Below are positions 1,075 through 1,200 of a DNA stretch of 1,570 nt, one piece after another; position 1 is the first letter of the stretch, and each line of letters begins with the position of its first letter. The notes under the pieces were generated by a model. It searched no databases and was not told where the DNA came from. It saw only the letters and a list, made by a program, of their open reading frames with translations. This DNA comes from Escherichia phage ECO95 1-6-1: sequence record OR845833.1; one strand, 5' to 3'. The position numbers and the translations under genes were made by a program.

Positions 1075-1200
1075 CAGTTAACATGTTAACTGGCTGCCCG
1101 GGCATTTTTGCGGTTTTTATCTTTATTATTCAGTTTGTTGTGCGGAAAAAATGTTAACAGGCTTTTTCAGCAAATGTTAACCAGGCAGCAGTTAACATTT
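1075..1200. repeat. array of five ATGTTAAC / GTTAACAT motifs including an 18-bp perfect palindrome; putative terminase small-subunit recognition (cosB-like) region
   Basis: Perfect palindrome CAGTTAACATGTTAACTG at 1075-1092. Direct repeat AAATGTTAACAGGC (1149-1162) and AAATGTTAACCAGGC (1172-1186). Inverted repeat AAATGTTAAC (1172-1181) / GTTAACATTT (1191-1200) with a 9-bp spacer. Each copy is flanked by a YRGC-like sequence. All lie in the 290-bp non-coding gap directly upstream of the terminase small subunit start. Confidence 0.45.

Follow-up and report, generated by a model that had tools for sequence, protein, structure and literature searches.

The cos site of phage lambda has a 12-nt 5′ overhang. 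Phage P1, a headful phage with a different terminase, carries a pac site in which clusters of GATC-containing TGATCA/G hexamers flank the cut and act in a manner dependent on Dam methylation. In lambda, the R3, R2 and R1 elements of cosB are bound by gpNu1 and are required for the binding of the small terminase subunit (TerS) and for the initiation of packaging (PMC6739421). In phage SPP1, G1P binds pacL and pacR, which are repeated sites overlapping the ribosome-binding site (RBS) and the 5′ end of its own gene (PMC6316719). In phage HK97, TerS has a single 15-bp site at +15 to +29, which is read as the DNA threads through the ring (PMC11331095). Finally, a 10-nt 3′ cohesive end, CGCCCCCCAT, has been mapped in the Acinetobacter phage fEg-Aba01 by PhageTerm and gel analysis (PMC7354433). 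Here, a cluster of short repeats located next to a terS gene is compared with these systems.

The window (the whole stretch of 1,570 nt that was analysed) comes from an E. coli lambdoid prophage of the BP-4795/2851 type, in which it forms the junction in the late region. Dozens of phage records match its positions 443-1570 at about 98% identity, EHEC chromosomes match it over the full length at about 99%, and this type of module is carried by many Stx1- and Stx2-converting phages. Directly upstream of the packaging module lies a PerC-family ORF (32-271, plus strand; Pfam PerC, 91 bits), a homologue of a transcriptional activator; the first ~440 bp, which include this gene, have no near match in the phage collection and are present in some EHEC chromosomes. 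A small ORF of the DUF3950 (YlcI/YnfO, RHH-like) family follows on the minus strand (353-577). Between these two convergent genes, a hairpin, AGCGAC-N7-GTCGCT, is found at 307-334 with an A-run and a T-run as its flanks; judged by eye, it looks like a bidirectional intrinsic terminator. The HNH endonuclease gene (619-984, plus strand), whose product belongs with terminases of the HK97 type, was recognized by its Pfam HNH match (28.3 bits; cutoff, 21.4) and by the BP-4795 annotation, and its product is 63% identical to the HNH protein of Salmonella phage FSL SP-016. The 5′ part of terS occupies 1273-1570 (plus strand; Pfam Terminase_2, 37.6 bits; cutoff, 26.1; also terS in the BP-4795 annotation), and its RBS, GGAGGAGG, is at 1263-1270 on the same strand. 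This part encodes the Terminase_2 N-terminal helix-turn-helix domain and the linker: the match covers TerS residues 2-58 and corresponds to the N-terminal third of the Pfam profile only, and the weak PDB matches (4zc3, 2cmp and 3zqp; E 0.2-0.7) are to the DNA-binding domains of SPP1/SF6-type TerS proteins. In BP-4795, terS is followed by the gene for TerL (TerL_ATPase and TerL_nuclease), a large gene annotated as the major capsid protein, and portal genes. Since the HNH gene ends at 984 and the terS GTG is at 1273, a non-coding gap of 288 bp (985-1272) separates them, as had been recognized in the preliminary description.

This gap is predicted to contain a cos site. A G-run followed by ATCA, GGGGGGGGATCA, is located at 993-1004 (plus strand), about 43 nt before the predicted nick. 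It is shared with HK97 and fEg-Aba01, and the G-run element was found in all related loci; it may be a TerL/HNH element or a termination-side element. The predicted cosN, with a 10-nt 3′ cohesive end CGCCCCCCGT, is at 1034-1043 (plus strand). The nick is placed there because this segment is homologous to the mapped ends of fEg-Aba01 and HK97: the window reads GGACAC, CGCCCCCCGT and CTCACGCA in succession, fEg-Aba01 reads GGACAC, CGCCCCCCAT and CGCACGCA, and HK97 reads GAC and CGCCGCCAAA. The anchors are thus one phage from another order (fEg-Aba01) and HK97. A feature of the fEg-Aba01 record also gives the 3′ end CGCCCCCCAT, in the context of GGACAC on its left and CGCACGCACAAAAAAAATTCCC on its right, with GGGGGG about 45 nt before the mapped end; in the HK97 record, GGGGGGGGGATCA occurs 42 nt before the right end, which terminates in GACCGCCGCCAAA. 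The top strand is accordingly predicted to be nicked between 1043 and 1044, so that the left genome end would start at 1044. In the E. coli-type loci, the predicted overhang is CGCCCCCC(G/C)T, ending at window position 1043. Neither sequence records nor the literature yielded mapped virion ends of E. coli-type phages, and the phage collection contained no phage with mapped ends among those of the standard type, in which terS starts close to the nick (see below). The literature on the cos sites of Stx phages gave nothing on the HNH-terS junction, and a literature search with the overhang sequence returned irrelevant matches only.

The same block (the G-run, ~43 nt, GGACACCGCCCCCC and then CTCACGCASAGAAAAAATYCCC) was found in 20 genome loci from Enterobacterales plus Acinetobacter. 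At its left end, over 100 bp, the gap is about 80% identical to the HNH-terS gap of FSL SP-016, whereas the flanking coding DNA aligns less well. To the right of the predicted nick is a left-end core with an A-tract, CTCACGCAGAGAAAAAATTCCCG (1044-1066, +1 to +23; plus strand), which is near-invariant across the family: it is kept in the relatives from Enterobacterales, Acinetobacter and Burkholderia, and 2 of its 23 positions vary among 55 E. coli-type variants. If HK97, with its site at +15 to +29, is taken as a guide, this core could be a second candidate for the primary TerS site. Two observations on the G-run are added. One is that its length (window 993-1000; the same place in L030-L105) ranges from ~7 to 11 G among otherwise near-identical prophages, which could reflect either real homopolymer slippage or assembly error. 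Another is that, in the PPompW prophage (L258; LC567822.1, 1046-2504), ISEc20 of the IS110 family abuts the G-run at a position corresponding to about window 996; the order there is Q, tRNAs, the IS, and then cosN, the boxes and terS, and the HNH and lysis genes are missing. Such copies, with the IS at the G-run and without HNH, have probably lost packaging competence.

The repeats themselves are as follows. Five copies of ATGTTAAC had been noticed previously, and exact copies do occur at 1077 (minus), 1083 (plus), 1151 (plus), 1174 (plus) and 1191 (minus), spanning 1077-1198; they are referred to as boxes 1 to 5 hereafter. Boxes 1 and 2 form a perfect 18-bp palindrome, CAGTTAACATGTTAACTG, at 1075-1092 (+32 to +49; strandless). 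Box 3, AAATGTTAACAGGC, at 1149-1162 (+106 to +119; plus strand) and AAATGTTAACCAGGC at 1172-1186 constitute a direct repeat. The positions reported for the palindrome and for the direct repeat were both verified. Boxes 4 and 5 constitute a strandless inverted repeat at 1170-1202; its 9-bp spacer was also correctly described, but its arms, which had been given as 10 bp, are perfect over 12 bp (GCAAATGTTAAC, 1170-1181, and GTTAACATTTGC, 1191-1202). The consensus of the boxes is AATGTTAAC, with GTTAAC as its core. The T-tract-rich spacer between the box groups, read from the plus-strand sequence at 1100-1148, is possibly intrinsically bent, and its positions 1112-1126 are invariant among the E. 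coli-type variants. The intervals of the boxes (8, 68, 23 and 15 bp) are not helically phased, unlike the arrays with a 12-13 nt period in relatives. Relative to the predicted nick, the boxes extend from +34 to +155, on the side that would be packaged first, and GTTAA[ACT] does not occur in the 520 nt upstream of the predicted nick in the window. The earlier placement of a putative TerS site in the gap beside terS is supported; what it lacked was the predicted cut site, which lies inside the same gap, ~35 bp upstream of the first box. The present terS start is GTG CTG ACA and therefore contains no box. Scans of the gap for a terminator-like site and for an IHF consensus between the box groups found none, and the promoter scan gave only one weak match, on the minus strand, which is composed of the boxes themselves.

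The concentration of this motif is statistically clear. The window contains 8 sequences that match ATGTTAAC with at most one mismatch, where 1.07 would be expected, and this number was not attained in any of 200 dinucleotide shuffles. The exact 8-mer was also counted in 50 kb of BP-4795, a near-identical phage: over the two strands, it occurs 6 times (1.3 expected), with 5 of the 6 copies in the cluster, and GTTAAC is the sole 6-mer that has five non-overlapping copies within 130 bp. One comparable 8-mer cluster exists there, a four-copy repeat at ~12,065 inside the annotated replication gene O, which we take to be the lambda-type origin iterons. A similar motif density elsewhere in the genome had been considered as a sign of an artefact; apart from the gene O type of repeat, the cluster is unique in the 50 kb, and it is not a compositional artefact.

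A clear contrast is also seen between the boxes and their surroundings with regard to variation. Among 55 distinct E. coli-type junctions, 0 of the 38 box positions vary, as compared with 54 of the 191 other positions between the nick and terS (Fisher p = 1.5e-5, a value in which independence is overstated by kinship). In box 3, the ATGTTAAC core is invariant and the next base varies between A and T. A scan of metagenomes gave mostly chance 18-mer matches and one useful divergent relative, L269, in which 37 of 38 box positions are identical to the window, as compared with 140 of 194 others. This relative also keeps box 3, and it has a sixth box, an extra GTTAAC in the spacer of boxes 4/5. Conservation of the motif spacing at the HNH-terS junction had been suggested as a check. 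In all lineages compared, the first box begins +34 to +36 from the predicted nick; this holds for the window, for L109, for the standard type, and for the loci of the Pantoea, Proteus and Acinetobacter types.

The structures of the related loci provide a clue to the nature of the boxes. GTTAA(C/A) boxes were found in relatives from Enterobacterales and Acinetobacter, all of which have a TerS of the Terminase_2 type. In the standard architecture, found in most relatives, the terS gene begins at +40 with the eight bases ATGTTAAC (Met-Leu-Thr); GT(A/T)AAC precedes this start, so that a near-palindrome occurs exactly where the window has the perfect palindrome. In alignments with FSL SP-016 and over 40 distinct relatives, the window palindrome falls on the terS start, GTAAAC-ATG-TTAAC. 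The cosB-like reading of the preliminary description is supported; what had escaped it is that, in most relatives, the motif coincides with the start codon of terS and the following two codons. The second codon, Leu2, is TTA in 79 of 80 viral loci that were collected with a peptide pattern and hence irrespective of codon choice, while TTA accounts for only 3 of 312 Leu codons (<1%) elsewhere in those terS genes, and the neighbouring codons vary synonymously. For this point, we relied on the peptide-pattern loci and on Leu codon usage; an initial count of 45/45 TTA was set aside as circular, the regular expression having required ATGTTAAC. The corresponding argument from Burkholderia was rejected as weak, TTA making up 2 of 11 Leu codons in Burkholderia terS. 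Selection for AU-rich codons at the gene start could explain part of the TTA fixation.

In every lineage with a CTG or CTA start of terS, boxes are found in another place. A leader of ~190 bp carries five of them in the E. coli type. The Pantoea type (CTG start) has 2-4 direct GTTAACC repeats with a period of 12-13 nt just upstream of terS. In the Proteus type, GTTAACC repeats with a 12-nt period are inside the terS linker, where they are read as Val-Asn (EVNRGVNPEVNP, KVN repeats). In the Acinetobacter phages, the interval from the nick to terS holds three AAGTTAAA boxes, which are invariant in ~50 variants, and an Acinetobacter subgroup at 66% identity keeps the boxes with other spacing. Two further features were observed among the Proteus-related sequences. 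In the terS of a Proteus mirabilis ATCC 29906 prophage (L020, 2660-2830), the linker contains ~13 copies of a 12-nt repeat encoding xVNx (KVN, DVN, EVN and others), many of which spell GTTAAC; it seems, from this sequence, to be a cis-element array written into the coding sequence. In the Proteus-like viral contigs L197-L199, GTTAAC/GTTAAT boxes also occur ~100-170 nt upstream of the G-run (GTTAACTGGTTAATTACCGGGTTAATTAC...ATGTTAAC), and the cut site is flanked by boxes on both sides, as in SPP1 with its pacL and pacR; this is the sole group with upstream boxes.

The origin of the additional boxes in the window can be traced in part. Boxes 1 and 2 occupy the position of the ancestral terS start codon. 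The segment ATGTTAACCAGGCAGCAGTTAACATTTGCGGCA at 1174-1206 (plus strand), which includes box 4, is a relic of a duplicated terS 5′ end: it would read MLTRQQLTFAA, and the real TerS starts with MLTTQKRKFALA. The flank of box 4 is identical to codons 4-11 of the standard terS sequence at 15 of 25 positions, a score reached by only 8 of 3090 window 25-mers, among them the real terS start and the box 4 relic itself. A weaker relic follows box 2, with TTTGCG at the same offset (1083-1113). From the likeness of the box 4 flank together with the box 2 TTTGCG, the leader therefore looks like the product of serial duplication of the terS 5′ end, in which the boxes alone would have been kept and one inverted copy created. 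The box list of the preliminary description is correct, but it did not recognize that at least two of the boxes sit in such relics. The old terS start opens an ORF at 1083-1157 (MLTGCPGIFAVFIFIIQFVVRKKC; 24 codons, hydrophobic); this ORF was rejected as a gene, being frameshifted or truncated in L074 and L088 and having lost the ancestral SD.

One viral contig, L109, has the layout of the window with a different box, ATGTACAT. Its palindrome, TATGTACATGTACATA, is at +32, the same place as the window palindrome, and its boxes are at +35, +41, +108 and +130, as compared with +34, +42, +110, +133 and +148 in the window. The core is the same and ends in TTCCCGTTTC; the spacer is AT-rich and about as long as that of the window, and the two boxes that follow are 22 nt apart. 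The terS gene of L109 starts with ATGCTGACA, unlike its own box. The encoded TerS belongs to Terminase_2; in this single contig, it carries R25 and N35, which are absent from the other TerS sequences compared, and its recognition helix differs from that of the GTTAAC-type TerS at a few residues only. The GTTAAA boxes of Acinetobacter accompany yet another recognition helix. Exact scans for the cos core and the palindrome, carried out in search of further loci of this type, gave only the same contig or unrelated coding contexts. The ORF directly upstream of HNH in this contig (250-873) looks, by eye, like a SAM-dependent methyltransferase; as TGTACA and GTTAAC are both 6-bp palindromes, methylation might conceivably be tied to packaging.

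The candidate binders were then compared across the lineages. All lineages with boxes have the Terminase_2 N-terminal domain, while two HNH subfamilies with ~30% identity accompany the same box, and the DUF3950 gene occurs at 70 of 76 E. coli-type loci but, within the flanks fetched, at none of the 167 other related loci that were checked. Because the boxes track the Terminase_2 TerS, and neither the HNH subfamily nor DUF3950, TerS is the most economical candidate for the box-binding protein. HK97 shares the upstream half of cos only, and its TerS (gp1) is unrelated to that of the window (BLASTP E = 1.2; gp1 has no Pfam Terminase_2 match). The main reading of the preliminary description, a cosB-like, multi-copy TerS recognition site, is thus favoured by the position of the boxes on the side packaged first, by their fixed register, by their invariance against varying flanks, by their co-occurrence with the Terminase_2 TerS, and by L109, in which the same layout carries a different box. 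A precedent exists in SPP1 G1P, a protein of the same Pfam family, whose repeated sites overlap the 5′ end of its own gene (PMC6316719). We consider it rather probable that the boxes constitute such an array and that they descend partly from duplicated terS 5′ ends. That TerS binds them, and that packaging needs this binding, we infer from sequence comparison.

Several other explanations must be weighed against this recognition array. The boxes might be a packaging element bound by some factor other than TerS (TerL, HNH, a host nucleoid protein or a phage factor), with TerS reading the A-tract core at +1 to +23. The HK97 TerS site also contains an A-tract (PMC11331095), no block in the family is more conserved than the core at 1044-1066, and the 6-bp palindromic cores (GTTAAC and TGTACA) would suit a symmetric dimer. 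However, the HK97 TerS is unrelated and has no helix-turn-helix domain, which makes the analogy loose; loci with one and the same box differ in their HNH subfamily; any host factor involved would need to be common to Enterobacterales and Acinetobacter, where the boxes persist; and the Terminase_2 DNA-binding domain is the sole DNA-binding module that is always present. A binder other than TerS is thus unlikely. The idea that the repeats are neutral scars, i.e., terS starts left over from past recombination or duplication and devoid of present function, draws on the same facts as the account of their origin: most relatives begin their terS with ATGTTAAC, the flank of box 4 resembles terS codons 4-11, and box 2 keeps TTTGCG at its offset. 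Scars should nevertheless decay evenly, and the boxes stand out from their surroundings both among the E. coli-type junctions (0/38 against 54/191 varying) and in L269 (37/38 against 140/194 identical). Moreover, box 5 is an inverted copy and not the relic of a start, the box of L109 is unlike its own terS start in spite of the same layout, and the arrays of Acinetobacter and Pantoea are not copies of a start codon, so that we regard the absence of any present function as improbable to a high degree.

Two regulatory explanations are also to be considered. The palindrome and the inverted repeat might be hairpins, in the mRNA or as a DNA cruciform, that control the translation or transcription of terS and not packaging. 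Indeed, both regions fold well above shuffled controls as single strands (z = -3.75 for the palindrome and -6.0 for the inverted repeat), the two outer arms of the palindrome vary together among the window, L269 and L109, and the SPP1 TerS is known to repress its own synthesis (PMC6316719). Against this, L088 and L104 have lost the three outer pairs of the 12-bp stem with no compensating change, and only the inner 9 bp (AATGTTAAC) are still complementary there; therefore, the box and not the hairpin is the conserved unit, and the hairpin was rejected in that role. The direct repeats of the relatives cannot pair, the gap has only the weak minus-strand promoter match and nothing like a terminator, and the real RBS and start are more than 60 nt downstream of the last box. 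Control of terS by such hairpins is therefore very doubtful as the function of the repeats. The alternative offered in the preliminary description, an operator array for the neighbouring DUF3950 protein, fares worse. The gene is ~500 bp away and is present in most E. coli-type loci, and palindromic boxes would suit a dimeric RHH protein; but it is missing, within the flanks fetched, from the other box-bearing lineages, no box is present between it and HNH (578-618), where its promoter would be expected, and only one other copy of the 8-mer exists in the 50 kb of BP-4795. In addition, DUF3950 core residues 20-53 share 91% identity with a segment of lambda records that lies ~250-350 bp from their right end (e.g., LC730321.1, 48146-48247), and lambda has a different cos and a different terminase. 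The operator reading is largely refuted, and we give it hardly any credence. The DUF3950 gene is a lambdoid right-arm gene adjoining cos whatever the terminase type.

If the boxes are read as a TerS recognition array, the following mechanism can be proposed. The gap at 985-1272 would be the cos region of an HK97-type, HNH-assisted packaging module that generates a 3′ overhang. The terminase would nick around 1034-1043, and the DNA to the right of the nick would be packaged first. The five GTTAAC-core boxes, beginning at +34 with the palindromic pair and continuing after the T-rich spacer with three more, would be where the oligomeric TerS of the Terminase_2 type docks with its N-terminal helix-turn-helix domains; the docked boxes would anchor the terminase beside cosN and set the specificity of packaging, the role played by cosB in lambda and by pacL/pacR in SPP1. 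In most relatives, one box would be supplied by the terS start itself (ATG TTA AC, Met-Leu-Thr), and the E. coli lineage would have gained more by duplication of the terS 5′ end.

A broader proposal can be put forward only tentatively, and we hold it to be possible without regarding it as probable. It supposes a widespread family of cos phages, including many Shiga-toxin prophages, that combines HK97-type nicking with an SPP1-type TerS reading GTTAAC "address" boxes at a fixed +34. The address would be written into the phage's own terS, at its start or in the Val-Asn linker repeats, and would be switchable (GTTAAC to TGTACA), giving rise to packaging-specificity groups among freely recombining lambdoid phages that satellites could exploit. 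If the boxes are indeed the TerS address, they would define the packaging specificity of a large group of Stx1-/Stx2-converting and other EHEC prophages, and this would bear on which DNA is mobilised, which prophages can still be packaged, and which satellites or cos plasmids ride on them. The natural box switch in L109 and the arrays with different spacing would also offer a clean test system for the reading of DNA by a ring-shaped Terminase_2 TerS, and the start codon of terS and its linker repeats would exemplify a cis signal that shapes the coding sequence of its own protein.

The comparison with the known systems can now be made. The resemblance to lambda cosB is that short elements recur on the side packaged first, between cosN and the gene for the small terminase, with copies in both orientations and a spacer between the groups. 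In contrast to the lambda 12-nt 5′ overhang, a 10-nt 3′ overhang and an HNH helper are predicted for the window; its TerS belongs to Terminase_2 and is not a winged-helix protein like gpNu1, the sequence of the box is unrelated, and an IHF consensus is lacking between the box groups. With the pac sites of SPP1/SF6, the window shares a TerS of the same Pfam family with an N-terminal DNA-binding domain, and the SPP1 site overlaps the 5′ part of the TerS gene, just as the box of the standard relatives is the terS start codon; SPP1, however, packages by the headful (pac) mode and has sites to the left and right of its cut, whereas the boxes of the window are only downstream of the predicted nick, at an end that is cos-type by homology. 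With HK97, the upstream cos half is homologous (the G-run, ATCA, ~42 nt and a C-rich 10-nt 3′ end), an HNH gene adjoins it, and the TerS site of HK97 is likewise a few turns downstream of the nick (+15 to +29), but gp1 is unrelated to the window TerS, the downstream cos half cannot be aligned, and one 15-bp site stands there in place of a box array. Arrays of short palindromic hexamers clustered around the terminase cut site are also reminiscent of P1 pac, from which the boxes of the window and L109 (GTTAAC and TGTACA) differ in lacking GATC.

No description of GTTAAC boxes in connection with a terminase or cos was found in the searchable literature, in line with the earlier suggestion that this architecture may be undescribed. 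We propose, by analogy, that the window array works like lambda cosB and SPP1 pacL/pacR and is a member of neither system, because its cos chemistry differs, its TerS family differs from that of lambda, and the window has no upstream sites. Most likely, as judged from these comparisons, it is a known kind of packaging signal in a phage family for which such a signal had not been described.
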